Positions 808-38,362 of a stretch of 43,029 nucleotides of DNA are shown here, piece after piece. The stretch is taken from the NCBI GenBank assembly GCA_964558935.1, contig CAZLFP010000007.1, positions 1 through 43,029 of the forward strand, read 5' to 3'. Each line of letters opens with the position of its first letter. The stretch's first letter is position 1. The position numbers and the translations under genes were made by a program. This DNA comes from an uncultured Gammaproteobacteria bacterium. Lineage in GTDB: Bacteria; Patescibacteriota; Patescibacteriia; 2-01-FULL-39-33. The notes beneath the pieces were generated by a model. The model made no database searches. It was not told the DNA's origin and was given only the letters and a program-made list of their open reading frames with translations.

Positions 808-1804
808 CTTTTTTTTGAATAACTAACCAAAGATAACTTACACCCAACATGCAACAAGTCAGAATTAGGGTGGTTAAGATATACAGCCACCAATTGGTTT
901 CTTGGTACTGCCACCAGTCACTGACAACCACTTTGACCAGACCATAATGAACAAAATAGATCAACAGAGCATTCCGGCCGAGCAAGCTCAGCCATTTTAG
1001 GTGTTTGCTGGTGATAACGTATGCATAATACAGGCCAAAAGCATACAACAGAATGCAACCGACTACCCAGAGCATGGTATCCGGCTTGGGAAACCAGTGA
1101 TCATTTAAATAATTATCATTGGCAAAACTTAACCAAGGAGTGGAATCAAAGAAAACTTGGTTGAGCATGAAGGCATGAACCAGTCCCACACCCATTAAGC
1201 ATACCAGCGTCCAATACATATTCAATTTCTTTGTTTGACAGTTGACAAACCATTCAGCCAACAAAATACCCAGCAAGACAAAGCAAAAATAAGGAATTAA
1301 AGGAAAAGAAGATAAAAAATACAGGGATAGAGAAGGTAGATGATCAGACAGGGTTTGCATCACAATATACTCATAAGACAAGCCGCCAAAACAAGTCACA
1401 ATCAAGCCCAACATTACCAACTGCATCAGCCAATTCTGCTTTAACAACAAAAAAGGGATAGCCAGTATAATACTTAAGCCAATCGTGTGCAAAATATTGC
1501 CCTGAAACACAGGGTGGTTTAACATTAAGCTGAGCAAGAAACCAAAACCCACTAAACTGACTCCCCTAACCAAATACTTTCCAATCATACTGGATTTGGA
1601 AGCTCTTTTGGCTTGAGCTTTGTTAAATGACAAAACCAGACTGAAACCGACCAAGTATAAAAACAAAGGAGCTGACCAGGTCATGGTTAAATAAATCAGC
1701 TCATGCCTAAAAAAACCGGCAGACAGCCAATACCGACCGGTATGATTAATGATCATAAGAATAATGGCCACACCGCGCAAGCCATCGACAAATGGATACC
1801 GCAT
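785..1804 (-). CDS. DUF1624 / heparan-alpha-glucosaminide N-acetyltransferase-like multi-pass membrane acyltransferase
   Basis: N-terminal DGLRGVAIILMIINH motif, FPLIPY, LGRNALLIYFVH; many hydrophobic segments. Confidence 0.75.
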   Translation of the reverse strand: MRYPFVDGLRGVAIILMIINHTGRYWLSAGFFRHELIYLTMTWSAPLFLYLVGFSLVLSFNKAQAKRASKSSMIGKYLVRGVSLVGFGFLLSLMLNHPVFQGNILHTIGLSIILAIPFLLLKQNWLMQLVMLGLIVTCFGGLSYEYIVMQTLSDHLPSLSLYFLSSFPLIPYFCFVLLGILLAEWFVNCQTKKLNMYWTLVCLMGVGLVHAFMLNQVFFDSTPWLSFANDNYLNDHWFPKPDTMLWVVGCILLYAFGLYYAYVITSKHLKWLSLLGRNALLIYFVHYGLVKVVVSDWWQYQETNWWLYILTTLILTCCMLGVSYLWLVIQKKDVNYFAN

Positions 1805-1805
1805 A

Positions 1806-2987
1806 TTAAAGAAATAAATACAGCAAAGTCATTAAGGCACCTAAAATAAAAATCGCATTCCAGCCAGGAGCAAAGAACATTAACAAAACCAAGGCAATGG
1901 TTAGGGCAATGATTTTACCCAAAACCAAAGCCATTTCAAAAAATACGATTTCCCGCATGACAGACCTGTCCTGAGCTTCTTCATATAACTTGGCAGTCAT
2001 GGGAATGAGCAGAGCTTGTTTGGCAATCCTGGAATAGGCATCAACCACAAATACACCCAAAGTTCCACGAATCATCAAACGCACAAGCCAGCTGAAGAAA
2101 TAAAAAATGGATCCAAAATGAGAAACAATTCTCCTGTCCTGTTGGTCACTTAAACGACCGATCAATAAAAAAACCAAGGTAGTTATGAAAACAGAAGCGG
2201 CTGTCAGCAATCCAACACTGAGAAAATCTCTAATCACCAAGTAGATGAAAATTGGCCAGATGGTCATGACCAAAACTTCCTCCCCAAATCCCATGTAAGT
2301 GACTAACTTCCTCCTGTTGTCTGCATCAAACATATCTTCATAAGTCTTCCAGTAATCAAAATGCATGGGCTTAACTTCCTCTTTGGTAATTAGCATCGGA
2401 ATATTGGAAATTAGAATCAAAGTTGAGACAAATAGGAATAAAATACCAAAGCCGTACAATTCAATTAAAAAACCGCCGGCCAGAGGTCCTAAAATACACA
2501 CCAATGAGCCTAAAGCGGCCAGGTTACTGATCTCCCTGCCCTGTTCGCCATCGATTGAAAAATTGGCAAAATTACTGTGGTAGGCCGGCCAATAGAATAT
2601 TTTACTCAGAGTGTAGAAAACAGCGGCCGGGATAATCATCCAGAAATAATATTCAATTGAAAACAAACTTAAATAAAAAATAACCGTAAAAACAGTACCC
2701 AGAGCAATAGATCTTTCGTAGCCGAATTTCTTGGCGAACTTGGCGCCCAAGGGCATGGTCCAAAAATACATGACATAGACCGCCAAGTAAAAAACCAACA
2801 CAAACTTTAAAGTATCCGCCAGTGCATAATCTTTTGCAAAAACCAAATATAAATACACCGGCTCAAAGACTAAAATGGCATTAATGGCAAAATTCAAAAT
2901 CAAAGTGGCGGCATACAGTTCTTTGACTTGCTGCGTCAGCCGTCTGGCAAAAAAGGAAGCAAATAAATTTTTAATCTGACCCGGCAT
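1806..2987 (-). CDS. MFS transporter
   Basis: About 12 hydrophobic segments; GRLSDQQDRR motif-A-like sequence; paralog of the upstream gene. Confidence 0.8.
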   Translation of the reverse strand: MPGQIKNLFASFFARRLTQQVKELYAATLILNFAINAILVFEPVYLYLVFAKDYALADTLKFVLVFYLAVYVMYFWTMPLGAKFAKKFGYERSIALGTVFTVIFYLSLFSIEYYFWMIIPAAVFYTLSKIFYWPAYHSNFANFSIDGEQGREISNLAALGSLVCILGPLAGGFLIELYGFGILFLFVSTLILISNIPMLITKEEVKPMHFDYWKTYEDMFDADNRRKLVTYMGFGEEVLVMTIWPIFIYLVIRDFLSVGLLTAASVFITTLVFLLIGRLSDQQDRRIVSHFGSIFYFFSWLVRLMIRGTLGVFVVDAYSRIAKQALLIPMTAKLYEEAQDRSVMREIVFFEMALVLGKIIALTIALVLLMFFAPGWNAIFILGALMTLLYLFL

Positions 2988-4160: not shown

Positions 4161-5126
4161 TTAAAATTTACGAAACAATTTGTAGGTATTATACCAAAAA
4201 TCCCGATAAACTTCATCATAGGCACCAATGTAATGAGTAAACTCGTTGTCAGGGCAAAAGCCGGTTTTAAAACGCGTCACTCCGGGCCATTTAAGACGAT
4301 CAACTCCCCAAAAATCATAATACTTTTTGTGTCGTGACTGAGCCTCCAAGATCGCTTGCCACTGCAGTAGATAAGGAGCCATGATGCGACGATATGAATA
4401 ATCTGAAGCACCGTGCAAATATACGGCCCAATCTCCAAAAAAAATCATCAAATTGGCGGCAATTACCCGGTTGTCCAGCTTGGCCACCCAGATCTCTAAT
4501 ATACCGGCTTGAGCCAGAATTTCAACCAAAGTTTGGTAGTAATGTTTGGGGTGAGGCGTAATTTCCTGCCGATCTGACGTTAATTGCGTTAATCGCCAAA
4601 AATCCTCCAGATACTGGCTGCCCTGATCTATCCTCACTCCGTGTTTACCGGCCACTTTGATATTATATCTGGTCTTGCTTTTCATGGCAGACAGCAACTG
4701 ATTTTGCTCCTGACATAAATCTAAAATTAAGGTTTGCTTGGGTTGAACCTGTCCGACATTGATTAATTTATTTGACACCCCAGGCAGTTGCGTCAGAGCG
4801 GGATCAAATCTTAAGAAAACAATGCCTGCTGCTTTCGCCAATTCAGCGATCTTAACCAACATAGCCTCAAAAACCAGATCAGACTCTGCCATGGGTCCTC
4901 TCGGACAGTACCAGTACCGAAAAAATCCTTTAATCTCCATTTGGATTATTTGCGCAACACCCAATATCCGATCTTCTTCAGCGACAACACGTACAACTTG
5001 CCTGCCCAAAGCTTGCTGAAACTCACCCCATTCCCATGCCTGCAACAAACCAAAATCCAGGGAATGTTTTTTTACAAAATCATTCCAATCCGATTGATTT
5101 GTATTCTTAATCTGAGAAATCTGCAT
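4161..5126 (-). CDS. FemAB/FemX-family aminoacyl-tRNA-dependent peptidoglycan bridge transferase
   Basis: LLQAWEWGEFQ, YCPRGP, KTRYNI, YLHGAS, YDFWG and GVTRFKTGF motifs. Start moved to ATG 5126, 7 nt after TAAAAT. Confidence 0.88.
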   Translation of the reverse strand: MQISQIKNTNQSDWNDFVKKHSLDFGLLQAWEWGEFQQALGRQVVRVVAEEDRILGVAQIIQMEIKGFFRYWYCPRGPMAESDLVFEAMLVKIAELAKAAGIVFLRFDPALTQLPGVSNKLINVGQVQPKQTLILDLCQEQNQLLSAMKSKTRYNIKVAGKHGVRIDQGSQYLEDFWRLTQLTSDRQEITPHPKHYYQTLVEILAQAGILEIWVAKLDNRVIAANLMIFFGDWAVYLHGASDYSYRRIMAPYLLQWQAILEAQSRHKKYYDFWGVDRLKWPGVTRFKTGFCPDNEFTHYIGAYDEVYRDFWYNTYKLFRKF

Positions 5127-5145
5127 TGCAGTTATTTTAACATAC

Positions 5146-5178
5146 AAAAAGCGGTTAGAAAACTCGGGTTCTAACCGC
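5146..5178 (-). terminator. Intrinsic terminator of the orphan gene 5190-5453
   Basis: GCGGTTAGAA/TTCTAACCGC inverted repeat with an A-run on the + strand (U-tract on -). Confidence 0.75.
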
Positions 5179-5189
5179 TCGTAATTAGC

Positions 5190-5453
5190 TTAGAGTTCAA
5201 CTGACCTAACCAGCACCTCATGAATGTCGGCAATACAGGTTAGACAATCCTCCCTTAAAGCCAGTAGAACGACTGCCACCGGATTATCTGGCGGTGCATC
5301 ATGTTCCTCGTCCGGGCTAATACCCAACTTGTCGGGATCAAAACCCATCCTCTTCAAATTGTCGTTGATATTGGCTACCATACGCACCGCATCGTGTTGT
5401 ACGCTGGCAGCTGACCGCCTGTCAGTGTTGCTTAACTCTTGTCGCTTATTCAT
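5190..5453 (-). CDS. Orphan hypothetical protein (87 aa)
   Basis: GGGAGG SD about 7 nt before ATG 5453 (MNKRQELS); has its own promoter and terminator. Confidence 0.7.
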   Translation of the reverse strand: MNKRQELSNTDRRSAASVQHDAVRMVANINDNLKRMGFDPDKLGISPDEEHDAPPDNPVAVVLLALREDCLTCIADIHEVLVRSVEL

Positions 5454-5500
5454 GTTAATCCCTCCCTTGTCGCTAACCAAACTAATCAACAGACCTAGGT

Positions 5501-5529
5501 ATCTTACCTGGAAAATACATTTTTGTAAA
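5501..5529 (-). promoter_or_regulatory. Sigma70-type promoter for the orphan gene
   Basis: TTTACA-17 bp-TAAGAT on the minus strand. Confidence 0.6.
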
Positions 5530-5534
5530 TACTG

Positions 5535-5561
5535 AAAAAAGAGCCTGCTGTCAGGCTCTTT
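5535..5561 (-). terminator. leuS terminator
   Basis: AAAGAGCCTG/CAGGCTCTTT hairpin with a U-tract on the minus strand. Confidence 0.75.
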
Positions 5562-5572
5562 GAGATAATTGT

Positions 5573-8572
5573 TTAAACCACAAAACCGATTATTCTGCCG
5601 GGTACAAAAATAACTTTCTTAACTGACTTGTTGGCTAAATACTTTTTGACATTGGGCAGGGCTTGAGCCGCCTCCACCGCTGCTGCCTGAGTAATGTCTG
5701 AGGCTAAGCTTAACTTGGCCCTAACCTTACCATTGATCTGAACCGCAAATTCTGACTGAGCATCGATAATCCTGGCACTGTCATAAGCGGGCCAATCTGT
5801 TAAACAAACACTGTCCGCTTTACCCATTTGAGACCATAATTCTTCAGCCAAATGAGGCGCAAAAGGAGATAGAATAATCAATAGACTCTCCCAAACTTTC
5901 TTACTGGCTTGTTTTTTTTCCGTCAGCTTGTTGACCAGTATCATTAAAGCGGAAATCGCCGTGTTAAACCGCATCTCGTCTATGTCTTCCGTCACCTTTT
6001 TAATTGTTTTGTTGAGCAAAACTTCTGTTTCATCATCTGCCTTATCCGTGAGTTCAATATTCTCAGATAAATTCCAAACTTTTTCCAAAAATCTTCTAAC
6101 ACCAACCACTCCCTTGGTATCCCAGGGAATGGCTTGGTCAAAAGGACCCATGAACATCTCATACACCCTTAACGTATCTGCTCCATACTCTTTAACCACT
6201 TCATCCGGATTAACCACATTACCCCGAGACTTACTCATCTTTTCTCCACCTTCTCCCAGCACCATGCCCTGAGCGGTTCTTTTCAGATAAGGTTCAGAAG
6301 TTGGCACATGCTTAATATCATACAAAAACTTGTGCCAAAATCTGGAATACAACAAATGTAAAGTGGTATGCTCCATGCCACCGTTGTACCAGTCTACCGG
6401 AGACCAATAATTTAATTTGTCTTCAGCAGCTAATTCTCGGTCATTCTTGGGATCTATGTATCTTAAGAAATACCATGAACTACCCGCCCACTGAGGCATG
6501 GTATCTGTTTCCCTTGTGGCATCTCCACCGCACTTAGGGCATTTGGTTTTAATCCAATCTGTTTGCTTGGCCAAGGGAGATTGACCATCTTCACTTGCCT
6601 CATACTCTTTAACTTCCGGCAATTCCAAAGGCAAATCTTTATCTTCCAAAGGAATCCAACCGGTATTTTTAACATCTAAGATTAAGTTTAAGATAAAAGG
6701 AGATTCTTTGACTTGAAAATGGCCTTGGCCGGTCACAATTTCCATCATCCAACCCTTAGGCAAATCAGATTCCGGGGCAACTTGGATAAAAGGATCATCG
6801 TCTGACAGAACCAGATTTACACTGCCAACCAATTTATCAACTGTCTTTAAATCCACCGGCGCTTCATTAAATTTCAACAGGGCTTCAAAATCAGTCCCCG
6901 GCCATTGTTTTTGATGCACAGACATATCCGCATGCCGTCTCTGCCCACCGAGGAGAGATCCAATTAAAAACAAATGGCCAATTCTCTTTTTGTTTTTCTC
7001 AATTAAATGCACAGCTGCCTTAGTACCCAAACTATGGGCGATAATCATATCGTCTTCTCCCAACTGATCCACATATTCTTTTAATTCACTCAGCCAGGTC
7101 TTTAAATCCGGAGCCTTACTGTTGGACAAAGTTGGATTAAAAACTTCAAAACCTTGTTTTTCTAATTCAATCTTCAGCCAAGGTAACCAATTGCCTTCGC
7201 CGGTGTCTGCAAAGCCATGAATCAACAAAACTTTTTGTTTCTTTTTAGCACAAGACTCACAATACACTACCGGAATCGGTTCACCCCAATATCTTTGACG
7301 AGAAAAAACCCAATCTCTTAACTTGTAATTAACCGCTTTAACTCCATGATTATTGTCTTCCAGCCAGTCTGTCATTTTAACAATCGCTTCTTTGGGAATT
7401 AAACCATCTAAAAAGTCAGAATTGACCATCTTACCATTATCTATATCTGTATATGCCTGTTTGGCAATGTTTCCACCAGATATCACCTCTATAATGTCCA
7501 GCTTAAACTTCTTGGCAAACTCATAATCCCTCTCATCATGAGCCGGCACTGCCATAATGGCACCGGTGCCGTAACCAGCTAACACATAATCTGAAATCCA
7601 AACGGGAATTTCCACTCCATTGACCGGATTAACTGCTTTAACCCCCTTTAACTCTACCCCGGTCTTTTCTTTATTTAATTCTGTTCTTTCCAAGTCAGAT
7701 TTCTTAGCCGCTTCAGTAATATATTTTTCCACTTCAGCAAAATTCTGTATCTTATCTTTTAACTTCAAAACCAATTCATGTTCCGGGGCTACCACCATAT
7801 AAGTTGCGCCGAATAGAGTATCCGGACGAGTCGTATACACTTTTAACTTGTGATCCGTATCTTTGATCTTGAAATCTATTTCCGCTCCGGTACTCTTGCC
7901 AATCCAATTTATCTGCTGGGTTTTTATTTGTTCCAAATAATCTACTGCATCCAAATCTTTAATCAGACGATCTGCATACCGAGTGATCCTCAACATCCAT
8001 TGGGATTTATTCTTCTTAACAACTTCTCCCCCACATCTTTCACATTGACCGTTAACCACTTCTTCGTTGGCCAAACCCACCTTACAATCCAAGCAAAAAT
8101 TAATCGGCATCTCTACCTTGTAGGCCAAGCCATGTTTAAACAGTTGCAGAAAAATCCATTGAGTCCACTTGTAATACTTGGGATCTGTAGTATTGACTTC
8201 TCTGGACCAATCAAAAGAAATGCCCAAAGACTTTAACTGCCTCTTAAAGGTCTGGATATTCTCTTCCGTCTTAACCCTGGGATGAGTTCCTGTTTTAATG
8301 GCAAAATTCTCTGCCGGCAAACCGAAAGCATCCCACCCGATGGGATACAGAACATTGAAACCCTGCATTCTCTTCTTGCGAGCAATAATGTCCATGGCCG
8401 TAAAGCTTCTGGGATGGCCCACGTGCAGTCCTTCAGCGGATGGATAGGGAAATTCAATTAAAGCGTAGTATTTGGGTTTAAGATCTCCATCCTGGGCTTC
8501 AAACAGCTGATGATCTTGCCAGTAAGCTTGCCACTTAGCTTCAATTTCAGAAGGAGAATAGTGTTTTGACAT
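5573..8572 (-). CDS. leuS: Leucyl-tRNA synthetase with an inserted alpha/beta-hydrolase domain (aa 442-637)
   Basis: FPYPS..GLHVGH (HIGH), CP1 editing motifs TTRPDT and GTGAIMAVPAHDERD, DWVFSRQRYWGEPIP, KMSKS. About 190 aa longer than typical. Confidence 0.97.
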   Translation of the reverse strand: MSKHYSPSEIEAKWQAYWQDHQLFEAQDGDLKPKYYALIEFPYPSAEGLHVGHPRSFTAMDIIARKKRMQGFNVLYPIGWDAFGLPAENFAIKTGTHPRVKTEENIQTFKRQLKSLGISFDWSREVNTTDPKYYKWTQWIFLQLFKHGLAYKVEMPINFCLDCKVGLANEEVVNGQCERCGGEVVKKNKSQWMLRITRYADRLIKDLDAVDYLEQIKTQQINWIGKSTGAEIDFKIKDTDHKLKVYTTRPDTLFGATYMVVAPEHELVLKLKDKIQNFAEVEKYITEAAKKSDLERTELNKEKTGVELKGVKAVNPVNGVEIPVWISDYVLAGYGTGAIMAVPAHDERDYEFAKKFKLDIIEVISGGNIAKQAYTDIDNGKMVNSDFLDGLIPKEAIVKMTDWLEDNNHGVKAVNYKLRDWVFSRQRYWGEPIPVVYCESCAKKKQKVLLIHGFADTGEGNWLPWLKIELEKQGFEVFNPTLSNSKAPDLKTWLSELKEYVDQLGEDDMIIAHSLGTKAAVHLIEKNKKRIGHLFLIGSLLGGQRRHADMSVHQKQWPGTDFEALLKFNEAPVDLKTVDKLVGSVNLVLSDDDPFIQVAPESDLPKGWMMEIVTGQGHFQVKESPFILNLILDVKNTGWIPLEDKDLPLELPEVKEYEASEDGQSPLAKQTDWIKTKCPKCGGDATRETDTMPQWAGSSWYFLRYIDPKNDRELAAEDKLNYWSPVDWYNGGMEHTTLHLLYSRFWHKFLYDIKHVPTSEPYLKRTAQGMVLGEGGEKMSKSRGNVVNPDEVVKEYGADTLRVYEMFMGPFDQAIPWDTKGVVGVRRFLEKVWNLSENIELTDKADDETEVLLNKTIKKVTEDIDEMRFNTAISALMILVNKLTEKKQASKKVWESLLIILSPFAPHLAEELWSQMGKADSVCLTDWPAYDSARIIDAQSEFAVQINGKVRAKLSLASDITQAAAVEAAQALPNVKKYLANKSVKKVIFVPGRIIGFVV

Positions 8573-18730: not shown

Positions 18731-18814
18731 GCCGACGTGGTGGAACTGGTAGACACGCTGCGTTCAGGTCGCAGTGGACGCAAGTCCATGAGAGTTCGAG
18801 TCTCTCCGTCGGCA
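18731..18814 (+). tRNA. tRNA-Leu (anticodon CAG), CCA not encoded
   Basis: Acceptor stem GCCGACG/CGTCGGC, D-loop GG, anticodon stem CTGCG/CGCAG with loop TT-CAG-GT, long variable arm, GTTCGAGTC T-loop. Confidence 0.95.
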
Positions 18815-18862
18815 CTAATCTCCCTCCAGCTTCAATTTTGAAGCTACCATTATTACTAATTA

Positions 18863-32255: not shown

Positions 32256-32411
32256 TTGACAAAATTAATATAATATGCTATAGTGGTATATCACGTTAAG
32301 TGATTGTTCTTTGACTTCGACTTACCCCGGTCTGACTGTTTCAGATTGGGTTGAGCATAGATTCCAAGTACCCCAATTACTCCCTATTAGATGGGGAGTG
32401 AAAAAAAGGAG
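32256..32411 (+). promoter_or_regulatory. Promoter plus structured leader of GC-rich orphan 1
   Basis: TTGACA-17-TATAGT, boxA-like TGTTCTTTGAC (32305-32315), two hairpins, AAGGAG SD. Confidence 0.7.
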
Positions 32412-32418
32412 AATGAAC

Positions 32419-33474
32419 ATGTCAGATTTCGCCATCATCGAGAACTGCCCCCTGAACAACGATCAGTACAGCAGCTGGCCCAATTTTCAGCTGCAAGTGA
32501 ATAAGGGCTTGGCTGACCAAGCCCAAGAGGCTCTCGGGCAGATGGAACTGCCCGGAAGTCTGAAGGGCTGGCTGTTCAATGGCCAGCTCCAGGTCATCGG
32601 AGACGACCTGAGCCTGGAGCAGATCCTCCAGGTGGCCGCCGATCTCTGGGAAAAATTGAATCCCCCCAACGGGGATATCAAACTGCTGTCCCGAGTCCCG
32701 GAGACGCAGGAGTTGCCGGCAGATCTGGCTGATCTGCCGACGGAGGAATACGAAGGTGAGACCTATGAGGTCATCACTTTCGTGTTGGGGCATGGATTCG
32801 TGCCCAAATTCTCGATTATCGAGATCCTGTTCCCGGTCACCAGCCGGGACGTCGACGACGTTCGGTACCGCGTCAAGCGGTTCAGAAACGGCGTGGAGCC
32901 CGAATTGACTGGACAGCCCAAGGTTGTCCAGACCATGGCCGAGGCTGTCGGCATCGCCTACAGCCAGAAGGGTGGTCACCTTGACCAGACGGCCACGAAT
33001 GGTTTGAGGCAAGTCAAGTCGTTCGTATTCCGCGTGATCGCGGACCTCTGGAGCGACGAGTACGTCGCTGTCGAGGGTTTCACCGAGAGACGGATCCCCC
33101 GCCACCCGACTGACCCGACCACTCCCAAGAGTGTCGACCACAACGGTGAGTCTTGGTATGAGGCTCACCGGATACTCGGGATCGGCTCCGGCCCCAAGTT
33201 CACGCGATGCCGGATCCTCTTCGCCAAGAAGGATCCGATGAACCGACTCAAGATTGTTGCCACGATAGTGGACAACAATCCTGAGCAGCAGAAGGAGGTC
33301 AAGAGTGGCGAATTCGATGACGTCCAAGACGTCATCCGATTCGCCTTCAACCAGCCCTGCGGCGAGATCCGCGGCGCCGCGTGGGGGGCCAACCGAGGTC
33401 TCCGCGAGGAGATCAAGCGGCTTCGGGCCAAATGGTTCGAGGCCAAGGAACGGAAGAACCCGTTCCGTCAGTAA
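32419..33474 (+). CDS. GC-rich orphan protein (351 aa) with an internal ~130-aa domain duplication
   Basis: SD 7 nt before ATG 32419; strong C/G third-position bias; terminator follows. Confidence 0.8.
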   Translation: MSDFAIIENCPLNNDQYSSWPNFQLQVNKGLADQAQEALGQMELPGSLKGWLFNGQLQVIGDDLSLEQILQVAADLWEKLNPPNGDIKLLSRVPETQELPADLADLPTEEYEGETYEVITFVLGHGFVPKFSIIEILFPVTSRDVDDVRYRVKRFRNGVEPELTGQPKVVQTMAEAVGIAYSQKGGHLDQTATNGLRQVKSFVFRVIADLWSDEYVAVEGFTERRIPRHPTDPTTPKSVDHNGESWYEAHRILGIGSGPKFTRCRILFAKKDPMNRLKIVATIVDNNPEQQKEVKSGEFDDVQDVIRFAFNQPCGEIRGAAWGANRGLREEIKRLRAKWFEAKERKNPFRQ

Positions 33475-33481
33475 TGACTTT

Positions 33482-33519
33482 AACCCCGCCACAACTGAAC
33501 GCAGTTGAGGCGGGGTTTT
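33482..33519 (+). terminator. Long hairpin terminator
   Basis: AACCCCGCC-A-CAACTG/CAGTTG-A-GGCGGGGTT plus a T-rich tail. Confidence 0.8.
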
Positions 33520-36721: not shown

Positions 36722-36898
36722 TTGACAAAATACAATATATGTGATATGGTATTGGGCAGTACTTGAACAATTTAACCCCTGTTTATGGGGAAACCGCTTA
36801 CGATCACACAAGTCCCCCACTTCAACGGTGCCATAGTGGTGCCGTTGGTTATTTCCAAGTCGGTGCTAAGGCACCAAGTGGGCAAATGCCCGAAGGAG
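36722..36898 (+). promoter_or_regulatory. Promoter plus structured leader of GC-rich orphan 2
   Basis: TTGACA-17-TATGGT, a predicted three-way junction at 36816-36882, AAGGAG SD. Confidence 0.65.
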
Positions 36899-36907
36899 AA
36901 CGGAAGA

Positions 36908-38362
36908 ATGAAGGTAATGTTGACTCTGATTCTGGCTCTGGTGTCGATGACGGCCCTGGCTGTCGACATCGGTGACGTCGAACAAGCGGCACTGAGATCG
37001 GTTACCCGAGGTGGCGTGGCCCTGTGTCCGGTGGAATCCGACAAGGTGGCTACACAGCCGCCTGAAAAGGGCGGCTGTTCAGGTGGTGTCCAATTCGACC
37101 TTGATGTAGTCGACGGTGTTGTGACCGGAGATTCCGGTCCTGTGCCTCCTGGAGAGTACTACATCTATCTGGCTCTATGTAACATCGATTTGGATCGACT
37201 GTTTAACAACTACGATCCCAATGGCGATCAGCAGACGGTGACGGTAACGTCGGGACAAACTTCCGAGGTCGTCATCGATCTGTATCTGCGGGAGCGTCTC
37301 ACAGGACAATTTTACGTGCCCATGCCTGAAGGATTAGATTCCCGTGGCATCACCAGTGTCAGCCTAACTGGGGCTGACGTTATTGACTACCAAGAAGTTC
37401 CCGGCGGTCGGTTGCGAGTTGACATCTCAGCTCCTCCGACTTTCGACGGCGGCACCCTGACCATCCATGGTCACGGTGACACTGAGTATTCGGGACGCAT
37501 TGAGACGAATTTCGTCGAAATACTGAACTCAGACCCACCGCAAGTCGAGTTCGCCACCGGTTCGGTTTCGATCGTCGGCGTAAACATCAACCGACCGGAA
37601 CCCAACGATTTCATCCAAGGAATCAATACCGAAGGGAATTTCTACTATGATTCCCTTCAGTCGGCCGTCGATGCCGGTTGCTGGGATATCCATCTTGGCG
37701 AGGGCGAATACACCGGCTTTGTGGCTGATTTGGTTGGCCAAGATCTGGCTGTCCACGGCTTGGGCGTGAATAAGACCAAGCTTGTGCCTTTGACAGATCA
37801 TACTGATCCGGTTGTCTACGCCGTAGGCGCAGATTCCTTTGTTCTGGGAGATGTCTGTGTCAGAGGTCAGGACAAAACCAATCGGAGTCTGGTTATCTGG
37901 CAAAGCAACCACGTGGCGATCCGTCATTGCTTGGTACACAATGATAATGCCGGTTGCTTGGATTCCAGTGACAACCGATTCGTCTTGATCGACCAAACGG
38001 CCATGCTGGGACCCGGTGCCGGCAATGGTATTCCCGACGATACGTATTGTTCGAGCAGCATCTGTGCTGTTCGAGCCGAGAATCTGACGGTGCGCAACTC
38101 GATTATCATTGGGGTGTGCAGAGGAATTACGGTCGACAGCGTCGACGATATGAGCATTGGCCGCAATTACTTCTACCGCATCGGTCAGACCAACTGTTAC
38201 AACAGTGGCAATGGACAAGCCATCGAGTTGGAAGACAACTTCGATGGCGATCCCATGCTATGGTTCAATGGGAGTCAAATGATTTGGACTCTCACCCCGA
38301 ATTCGCCCTGTTGGTACGCTGGCTACGAAGGCCAGACGATTGGGCCGCGCCTTACGGACTAA
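36908..38362 (+). CDS. GC-rich secreted protein with a C-terminal right-handed parallel beta-helix (pectin-lyase-like) domain (484 aa)
   Basis: Signal peptide MKVMLTLILALVSMTALA; YDSLQSAVDAG..IHLGEGEY beta-helix cap; DP.L...LTPNSPC..AG terminal motif. Confidence 0.75.
   Translation: MKVMLTLILALVSMTALAVDIGDVEQAALRSVTRGGVALCPVESDKVATQPPEKGGCSGGVQFDLDVVDGVVTGDSGPVPPGEYYIYLALCNIDLDRLFNNYDPNGDQQTVTVTSGQTSEVVIDLYLRERLTGQFYVPMPEGLDSRGITSVSLTGADVIDYQEVPGGRLRVDISAPPTFDGGTLTIHGHGDTEYSGRIETNFVEILNSDPPQVEFATGSVSIVGVNINRPEPNDFIQGINTEGNFYYDSLQSAVDAGCWDIHLGEGEYTGFVADLVGQDLAVHGLGVNKTKLVPLTDHTDPVVYAVGADSFVLGDVCVRGQDKTNRSLVIWQSNHVAIRHCLVHNDNAGCLDSSDNRFVLIDQTAMLGPGAGNGIPDDTYCSSSICAVRAENLTVRNSIIIGVCRGITVDSVDDMSIGRNYFYRIGQTNCYNSGNGQAIELEDNFDGDPMLWFNGSQMIWTLTPNSPCWYAGYEGQTIGPRLTD

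Follow-up and report, generated by a model that had tools for sequence, protein, structure and literature searches.

A complete, apparently working YdeN/RBBP9-type serine hydrolase nested in the second zinc knuckle of a patescibacterial leucyl-tRNA synthetase

The sole full-length leucyl-tRNA synthetase (LeuRS) of a small bacterial genome carries a second, unrelated enzyme domain threaded in frame into one of its zinc-binding modules. The gene, leuS, lies at 5573..8572 on the minus strand of the 43,029-nucleotide stretch analysed here (contig CAZLFP010000007.1 of GenBank assembly GCA_964558935.1, referred to as the window), and residues 442-637 of its 999-amino-acid (aa) product (6662..7249; all leuS coordinates below are on the minus strand) form an alpha/beta serine hydrolase of the YdeN/RBBP9 type, assigned from the PF06821 profile, an AlphaFold (AF2) model and insert-free relatives. 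An in-frame alpha/beta hydrolase at this position had been claimed by the original prediction, made from the letters alone, and both the exact translation and the PF06821 match uphold it. Regarding its significance, we lean, with modest confidence, towards an autonomous passenger hydrolase lodged at a permissive site of LeuRS, and the evidence for and against this interpretation is set out below.

The identity of the nested domain is supported by sequence profiles and by structure prediction. In the full protein, PF06821 (Ser_hydrolase) matches residues 448-623 with an E-value of 1.7e-15 and 57.8 bits (cut-off 22), and with the insert alone the match reaches 5.5e-17 and 62.7 bits (cut-off 22); no second copy of the family is found elsewhere in the genome. 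The AF2 model of the insert, built from an alignment of 99 free-standing homologues, has a mean predicted local distance difference test score (pLDDT) of 95.6 and a predicted template modelling score (pTM) of 0.92, with the lowest 10-residue block at a pLDDT of 78. Foldseek places YdeN (1uxo) first, with a template modelling (TM) score of 0.82/0.86, followed by six RBBP9 chains (TM 0.71-0.79), so that ranks 1-7 are taken by 1uxo, 9fcr, 2qs9 and 7oex (E from 1e-12 to 9e-11). Profile search and model thus agree on the YdeN/RBBP9-type assignment that had been put forward.

The motifs on which that assignment was originally based are all located where they had been placed: VLLIHG (7214-7231), NWLPWL (7175-7192), AHSLG (7025-7039), SDDDP (6791-6805) and GQGHF (6716-6730), as well as the CESC of the preceding zinc knuckle. 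The proposed Ser-Asp-His triad, which is indeed present by sequence, would be formed by Ser514 as the nucleophile in the AHSLG elbow (7031..7033), Asp593, the third D of SDDDP, as the acid (6794..6796) and His618 of GQGHF as the base (6719..6721). The HG pair after strand 1 (H452 and G453, 7214..7219) is the predicted oxyanion-loop motif, by analogy with the alpha/beta-hydrolase fold. Conservation was counted over 118 aligned domain copies, taken from database matches to the insert-bearing LeuRS region, in which Ser514 and His618 are kept in all 118, Asp593 in 114, H452 in 117 and G453 in 114; the linker between knuckle and domain (K445, Q446 and K447) is kept in 97-102. In a weak second stretch of the alignment with RBBP9, Asp593 and His618 fall on positions 138 and 165, which we take to be catalytic. 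Ser514 itself falls on the AHSLG of YdeN and on Ser75 of RBBP9, the latter named as the catalytic serine in the part of the RBBP9 study consulted here (PMC8866121). Based on these residues and on the model, the domain is apparently a complete, working serine hydrolase, and we infer that it is active. The known families of aminoacyl- and peptidyl-tRNA hydrolases (Pth, Dtd and the YbaK/AlaX type) give no match to the insert, for which Pfam and NCBIfam, at E<=0.1, return alpha/beta-hydrolase families only.

The host enzyme is equally recognizable as a LeuRS. Its open reading frame (ORF) matches TIGR00396 (leuS_bact) with 1007.7 bits, against a cut-off of 548.4, the match being split into two stretches around the insert, and Pfam additionally detects the anticodon-binding domain. 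In the genome (14 contigs totalling 906,658 bp, with a marker-gene completeness of 100%) this is the sole full-length LeuRS match, the five others being 24-33% identical pieces of other large ORFs. For comparison, 41 genomes were searched (the window's own and 40 relatives), LeuRS was found in all 41, and 39 LeuRS ORFs were scored, leaving out G002 and G029, where the gene is split over contigs; going by the source annotations of the homologues, the window's genome belongs to the Patescibacteria. The HIGH motif (HVGH, residues 50-53, 8414..8425) has its H50, G52 and H53 conserved in 39 of 39 of these LeuRS, and the KMSKS motif (residues 778-782, 6227..6241) keeps K778, M779, S780 and K781 in 38 and S782 in 37, one miss at each position being due to a truncated ORF. 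The CP1 editing domain (residues 222-405, 7358..7909) had been described as intact, and it is: the match to PF13603 is full-length (2-185 of 185, E 1.5e-64), the editing motif TTRPDT begins at residue 247, and the editing residues T247, T248, R249, T252, D346 and D349 are conserved in every one of the 39 relatives, whether the insert is present or not. The AF2 model of the full-length protein (pLDDT 86.8, pTM 0.83, junction blocks at 90-93) superposes on solved bacterial LeuRS with TM scores of 0.74-0.86, normalised by target length. With HIGH, KMSKS, the editing residues and the four zinc cysteines all present, the LeuRS part is intact.

The hydrolase is inserted at a precisely defined point. 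The first CxxC of the second zinc knuckle (CESC; C438 and C441, 7250..7261) stands directly before the insert and the second (CPKC; C678 and C681, 6530..6541) 41 residues past it, so the domain is threaded into the loop just beyond the first half of the knuckle. C438 and C441 are found in 10 of 10 insert-bearing relatives, C678 and C681 in 10 of 10 of these and in 28 of the 29 others; counted singly, the four zinc cysteines occur in all 10 insert-bearing LeuRS and in 26-28 of the other 29. That the flanking segments are normally contiguous, as had been claimed, is seen in the alignment with Thermus thermophilus LeuRS (1h3n), where query residues 4-442 pair with chain residues 3-443 and the alignment then breaks, and in 12 relatives reading C-x-x-C-G-x-x-P-x-x-E-K/D-x-LP, so that 13 residues stand in place of the window's 209. 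The insert-free LeuRS of G012 matches query residues 1-442 (77% identity) and 637-999 (68% identity) on adjoining DNA, which fixes the insert borders to within one residue. The insert has no stops and no frameshifts, the leuS reading frame is continuous through it, and its lack of any methionine before residue 509 indicates that it is not translated as a gene of its own. No step in GC content is seen at the insert borders, and a recent horizontal import, as judged by composition, was rejected on this ground.

A survey of the related LeuRS for other occupants of the same site found several. The zinc-knuckle site holds the hydrolase domain in 10 of the 39 scored LeuRS, a canonical or near-canonical empty loop in 14, a filler of 17-50 residues in five and an unrelated domain of ~130 aa in two (G007 and G015); eight were left unscored by the motif rule, seven of them short ORFs (798-866 aa, with no hydrolase match) and one containing an unreadable stretch. 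The hydrolase is therefore missing from this site in 29 of the 39, G012 among them, and G040 carries it at a different LeuRS site. The ~130-aa domain (locus L025 of G007, 1292-1687, minus strand; locus L033 of G015, 1522-1920, plus strand) has no Pfam match at E<=0.001, one of the two copies giving a sub-threshold hint of ASCH (E 0.03). The fillers, of low complexity (G005, G006, G008, G020 and G022; loci L023, L024, L026, L038 and L040), all share the ending GE[IL]LNPGW, similar to the tail PELLxxIL..KNTGW at the C-terminus of the hydrolase, and four of the five filler-bearing LeuRS adjoin insert-bearing ones in the host tree; judged from this resemblance, the fillers may be deletion scars of the hydrolase domain. 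In the closest insert-bearing relative (G018:C6, L036), LeuRS is read in two frames, of 755 and 310 aa, with overlapping query coordinates, which could come from a frameshift or a sequencing error, or mean that the gene is broken.

On the genome scale, PF06821 occurs in 24 of the 41 genomes, in 11 within LeuRS and in 13 as a free-standing protein only, and was not found in 17; the LeuRS-embedded copy is the sole PF06821 in eight of the 11, and the free-standing copies in relatives are of ~190 aa. In an even sample of the phylum, 69 of 300 other genomes match the insert at E<=1e-10, 17 of these matches lying inside open frames of 874-1261 aa (with hosts left unread) and the rest in frames of ~175-355 aa. 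Judged by gene content, PF06821 is dispensable in the lineage and LeuRS can do without the insert; and judged by the fillers and the unrelated ~130-aa domain found at the same spot, the zinc-knuckle site is permissive.

The same hydrolase family is found at other places in LeuRS and in other hosts. Among the 118 database matches to the insert region, 115 are LeuRS proteins or fragments with the same domain, and by LeuRS site 103 copies are assigned to Z (the zinc knuckle), 8 to E2 and 3 to E1. A near-length word-index homologue search with the insert returned one protein, as this kind of search misses relatives of ~30% identity, which were recovered by an exhaustive search. In the latter, run with the insert alone, LeuRS or LeuRS fragments make up 12 of the 19 multi-domain matches scanned from the top 150, a set that leaves out about ten further long LeuRS-like ones. 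The family is also nested in CarB and fused to Fmt: in P0115 and P0116 (residues ~479-659) the hydrolase sits inside the oligomerisation region of the carbamoyl-phosphate synthase large chain, and in P0113 (residues 163-355) between a YidD-like segment and methionyl-tRNA formyltransferase. Its other fusion partners are NUDIX, adenylate kinase, GNAT, glyoxalase, Smr and DUF1653.

Conversely, LeuRS carries other passengers. In 26 homologues picked for variety, we found NUDIX domains in 11, Ham1/ITPase in seven, HAD in four, an NTase-like domain in one and an IS200-type Y1 domain in one, as well as a second serine hydrolase in P0003 and, by a custom profile, in P0102. These extra domains lie mostly at two spots of the editing domain, and the relatives of the window show the same pattern. 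The Y1 transposase domain (PF01797, E 1.2e-13) stands in frame in the editing domain of the P0103 LeuRS (residues 271-376), and this protein also has the serine hydrolase.

The history of the domain was followed with two quick trees: a host tree of LeuRS without the insert columns (39 rows, 804 columns) and a domain tree of 100 rows, comprising every third zinc-knuckle database copy, all copies from other sites, nine relatives and 40 free-standing proteins. On the host tree the hydrolase state changes at least five times among the 31 scored rows, and forcing together the nine main-clade hosts, a group that was defined after the tree was seen, costs 463.6 log-likelihood units (p-AU, from the approximately unbiased test, 2.5e-8). 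On the domain tree, a single cluster (SH-aLRT, the Shimodaira-Hasegawa-like approximate likelihood ratio, 94) contains 41 of 44 zinc-knuckle copies and has as sisters four free-standing ~190-aa proteins (support 97), the G025 and P0103 copies join a different free-standing protein (97), and the P0111 copy falls among copies of another LeuRS site (99), with the editing-domain, CarB and Fmt copies each attached elsewhere. From this scattered attachment it follows that the zinc-knuckle site was colonised at least three times and that LeuRS was entered at three sites. As read from these trees, the main copy lineage is older than the split of its hosts and has since been repeatedly lost or moved between LeuRS genes. 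In G010, the domain groups with those of G003 and G021 (98) and the LeuRS with that of G017 (97), a discordance which hints at domain exchange between LeuRS genes.

We favour the passenger interpretation on the grounds that the domain is dispensable in close relatives, exists in free-standing versions, occurs in several hosts and at several sites, and shares LeuRS with other passengers. According to this interpretation, a whole YdeN/RBBP9-type hydrolase would have been captured as an intact domain at the tip of the second zinc knuckle and would be made as part of the cell's sole LeuRS polypeptide, which would go on charging and editing tRNA-Leu normally, with the hydrolase standing out as a separate surface globule and working as an autonomous enzyme. 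Its substrate would probably be a small acyl compound and, by analogy with RBBP9, maybe an amino-acid ester or amide with a free alpha-amine. LeuRS would then serve as a permissive, always-expressed chassis, allowing a 0.9 Mb genome to keep the enzyme without a gene or promoter of its own. Both the nature of the cleaved substrate and the independence of the hydrolase from tRNA are presumed here.

Several observations weigh against so neutral a role. LeuRS is the commonest multi-domain host in the insert-alone search (12 of the 19 scanned), and the repeated entry into LeuRS at three sites could reflect selection for a LeuRS-linked function. One of the other hosts, Fmt, handles aminoacyl-tRNA, and the conserved basic linker K445-Q446-K447 could touch RNA. 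RBBP9 removes single hydrophobic amino acids, Leu and Ile included, with a free alpha-amine, according to the part of the study consulted (PMC8866121). Aminoacyl-tRNA shares this chemistry.

These same points are the basis of the best-surviving alternative, which we consider unlikely: that the domain is a LeuRS-coupled aminoacyl-ester hydrolase, a third hydrolytic site clearing mischarged or D-aminoacyl-tRNA, or leaked aminoacyl-adenylate. It would account for the independent entries into LeuRS at three sites together with the Fmt fusion and for the conservation of the basic KKQK linker, and it would suit a lineage in which D-Tyr-tRNA deacylase (Dtd, PF02580) is found in one genome of 41 only (G027). 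Going by the title of a 2020 paper, known to us only as a reference-list entry, RBBP9 is reportedly a valacyclovir-activating enzyme, and valacyclovir is an amino-acid ester. The RBBP9 authors themselves allow for ester substrates, in the part of their study consulted (PMC8866121). Nevertheless, the domain is absent from the site in 29 of 39 LeuRS and no PF06821 is found in 17 of 41 genomes; Dtd is missing irrespective of the hydrolase, so that there is no pattern of complementary loss; and no known hydrolytic function is left vacant, with the CP1 residues intact and Pth present in 41 of 41 genomes (at G000:C2 in the window's own). Since CP1 is intact in insert-bearing and insert-free LeuRS alike, the insert does not replace editing. 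Moreover, the same family occurs in CarB and fused to enzymes unrelated to tRNA, three different LeuRS positions are hard to reconcile with one fixed geometry toward the CCA end, and the amine-binding region of RBBP9 is unaligned by sequence (query 96-148 versus chain 96-134). Of the two roles offered in the original prediction, the passenger at a permissive site is therefore the one favoured; the deacylase is the less probable one, and its peptidyl-tRNA part is unlikely to be needed, given the universal presence of Pth.

A combined scheme, in which LeuRS is a chassis for hydrolase cassettes that are loaded, lost and laterally exchanged, and in which the knuckle hydrolase acts as a third hydrolytic, proofreading site for aminoacyl esters, seems to us distinctly improbable. 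We hold less probable still that the domain is a substrate-supply aminopeptidase, trimming N-terminal hydrophobic residues from imported peptides and so raising the local leucine concentration in an organism assumed to scavenge amino acids. This idea is in line with the 0.9 Mb genome and with a family-5 solute-binding protein encoded in the window, presumably of the oligopeptide type. It also draws on RBBP9 being an aminopeptidase acting on N-terminal aromatic and hydrophobic residues, for which Leu and Ile adducts were trapped (PMC8866121, in the part consulted). However, leucine in free form would diffuse away and no channel for it is apparent, the NUDIX, HAD and Ham1 domains carried on the same LeuRS chassis are unrelated to leucine, and the specificity residues of RBBP9 are unconserved by sequence.

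Lower again we rank a non-catalytic or decaying passenger, that is, a structural bulge or a domain being lost in this lineage. At seven conserved positions, the residue of the window copy is not that of the clade consensus: M550 (W in 90 of the 118 copies), N569 (W in 68), L575 (W in 63), V613 (W in 61), E601 (H in 67), A487 (H in 69) and E499 (P in 97). The insert also evolves faster than the rest of LeuRS, with identities to eight insert-bearing relatives of 45-52% against 59-70% (for G025, 30% against 57%), and the GE[IL]LNPGW fillers in tree-neighbour LeuRS could be the scars of such losses. What speaks against decay is that the window copy retains the triad and the HG loop, which hardly vary among the copies, that its terminal branch in the domain tree has the median length (0.43), that the model is confident throughout, and that the frame is uninterrupted by stops or frameshifts.

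Finally, an assembly chimera, a metagenome misassembly having joined a hydrolase gene into leuS, might be suspected from a metagenome-type assembly in 14 contigs, but it is refuted in practice, and we regard its probability as negligible: contigs from two public runs (both of one study, possibly the source sample) run across the two junctions with 0 differences (X1 6481-6983 and 7055-7297; X2 6615-6825 and 7163-7571), the reading frame is continuous, GC shows no step, and 103 domain copies from many independent assemblies share the zinc-knuckle junction, which excludes misassembly, the error against which the original prediction had itself cautioned. No RNA data set was listed among the holders of this stretch.

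Directly downstream of leuS, on the same strand, lies a FemAB-family gene (4161-5147, minus strand); FemAB enzymes use aminoacyl-tRNA as donor. The 425-bp gap between the two genes (5148-5572) has a GC content of 0.49, against ~0.40-0.45 nearby, and contains as its sole ORF one of 103 aa on the opposite strand, with no Rfam match. Rfam finds tRNA only over the window, and no leader RNA near leuS. A tRNA-Leu(CAG) gene (18731-18815, plus strand) is placed between the gene for the family-5 solute-binding protein and that for RNase J, ~10 kb from leuS. Three large ORFs remain without a Pfam match at E<=1e-6 (32311-33474, plus; 32422-33492, minus; 36785-38362, plus), and since the first two overlap on opposite strands, at most one of them is likely to be real.

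Few enzymes are as conserved as the aminoacyl-tRNA synthetases, whose insertions known so far, CP1 and the zinc modules among them, have roles in charging or proofreading. An apparently active, unrelated enzyme in the zinc knuckle of a cell's sole LeuRS shows how far this scaffold tolerates nesting. Additionally, the three LeuRS sites, the other hydrolases nearby and the mixture of presence, absence and possible scars suggest that bacteria with ultra-small genomes house accessory enzymes within essential genes. Should aminoacyl esters be the substrates of the hydrolase, it would represent a novel type of quality control in translation and, were the third hydrolytic site real, a module for proofreading with a fold previously unseen in synthetase editing. 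If it is a pure passenger, its distribution would provide a natural map of permissive LeuRS insertion sites, useful in protein engineering, and also a handle on the physiological role of the YdeN/RBBP9 family.

Among known systems, the closest to the insert are YdeN of Bacillus subtilis (1uxo) and human RBBP9 (2qs9, 7oex and 9fcr), which are likewise compact alpha/beta hydrolases of ~190 aa. A phmmer search relates the insert to 1uxo with an E-value of 1.3e-10, the structural alignments give 20-21% identity, and the HSxG elbow, the SxDD(P) acid and the GHF histidine of these proteins align with those of the insert. They differ from it in being free-standing, whereas the insert lies within another enzyme and is attached at either end to a zinc knuckle. 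Furthermore, the middle of the insert (residues 96-148 of the domain) is ~14 residues longer than in RBBP9 and unaligned by sequence, so that the substrate specificity of RBBP9 is not transferable to it; for YdeN, to our knowledge, no substrate is known.

Canonical LeuRS, as represented by the structures from T. thermophilus (1h3n and 2bte), Escherichia coli (4aq7) and Neisseria gonorrhoeae (7nu8), have the same domain order as the window LeuRS (HIGH, ZN1, CP1 editing, second zinc knuckle, KMSKS, anticodon-binding and C-terminal domains) and lack its 196 extra residues, which come after the point matching T. thermophilus residue 443. Across the 18 solved LeuRS sequences listed, there is no coverage of query residues 443-648. 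The literature on the second LeuRS zinc site is inconsistent in its naming of domains and offered nothing useful on the role of the knuckle.

Inteins share with the insert an in-frame position in a conserved essential protein and a patchy occurrence among relatives. An intein was nevertheless rejected, as the original prediction had already implied by reporting no intein motifs: no Hint or intein family is among the 11 Pfam families at E<=0.1, and the insert has instead an ordinary fold of the metabolic-enzyme type. Inteins begin with Cys, Ser or Thr and end in His-Asn followed by Cys, Ser or Thr, and the insert, which begins with Ala-Lys (Ala442) and ends with Asn-Thr (Thr637) before Gly638, thus lacks splice-junction residues.

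We found no paper on a hydrolase nested in LeuRS in the full-text literature, a coverage that does not extend to subscription journals and supplements, and the part consulted of a study on protein families of the candidate phyla radiation (CPR; PMC6744442) makes no mention of one. Some database records do bear the label 'leucyl-tRNA synthetase/predicted alpha/beta hydrolase family esterase'. The family NF040702 ('isoleucine--tRNA ligase, N-acetyltransferase domain-containing') likewise joins, going by its name, a class Ia synthetase to an unrelated catalytic domain; the window LeuRS scores 74 bits against its cut-off of 1999 bits, and its own passenger is a nested serine hydrolase. Synthetases with extra domains are thus already known as a kind, of which the LeuRS-nested hydrolase is a variant.

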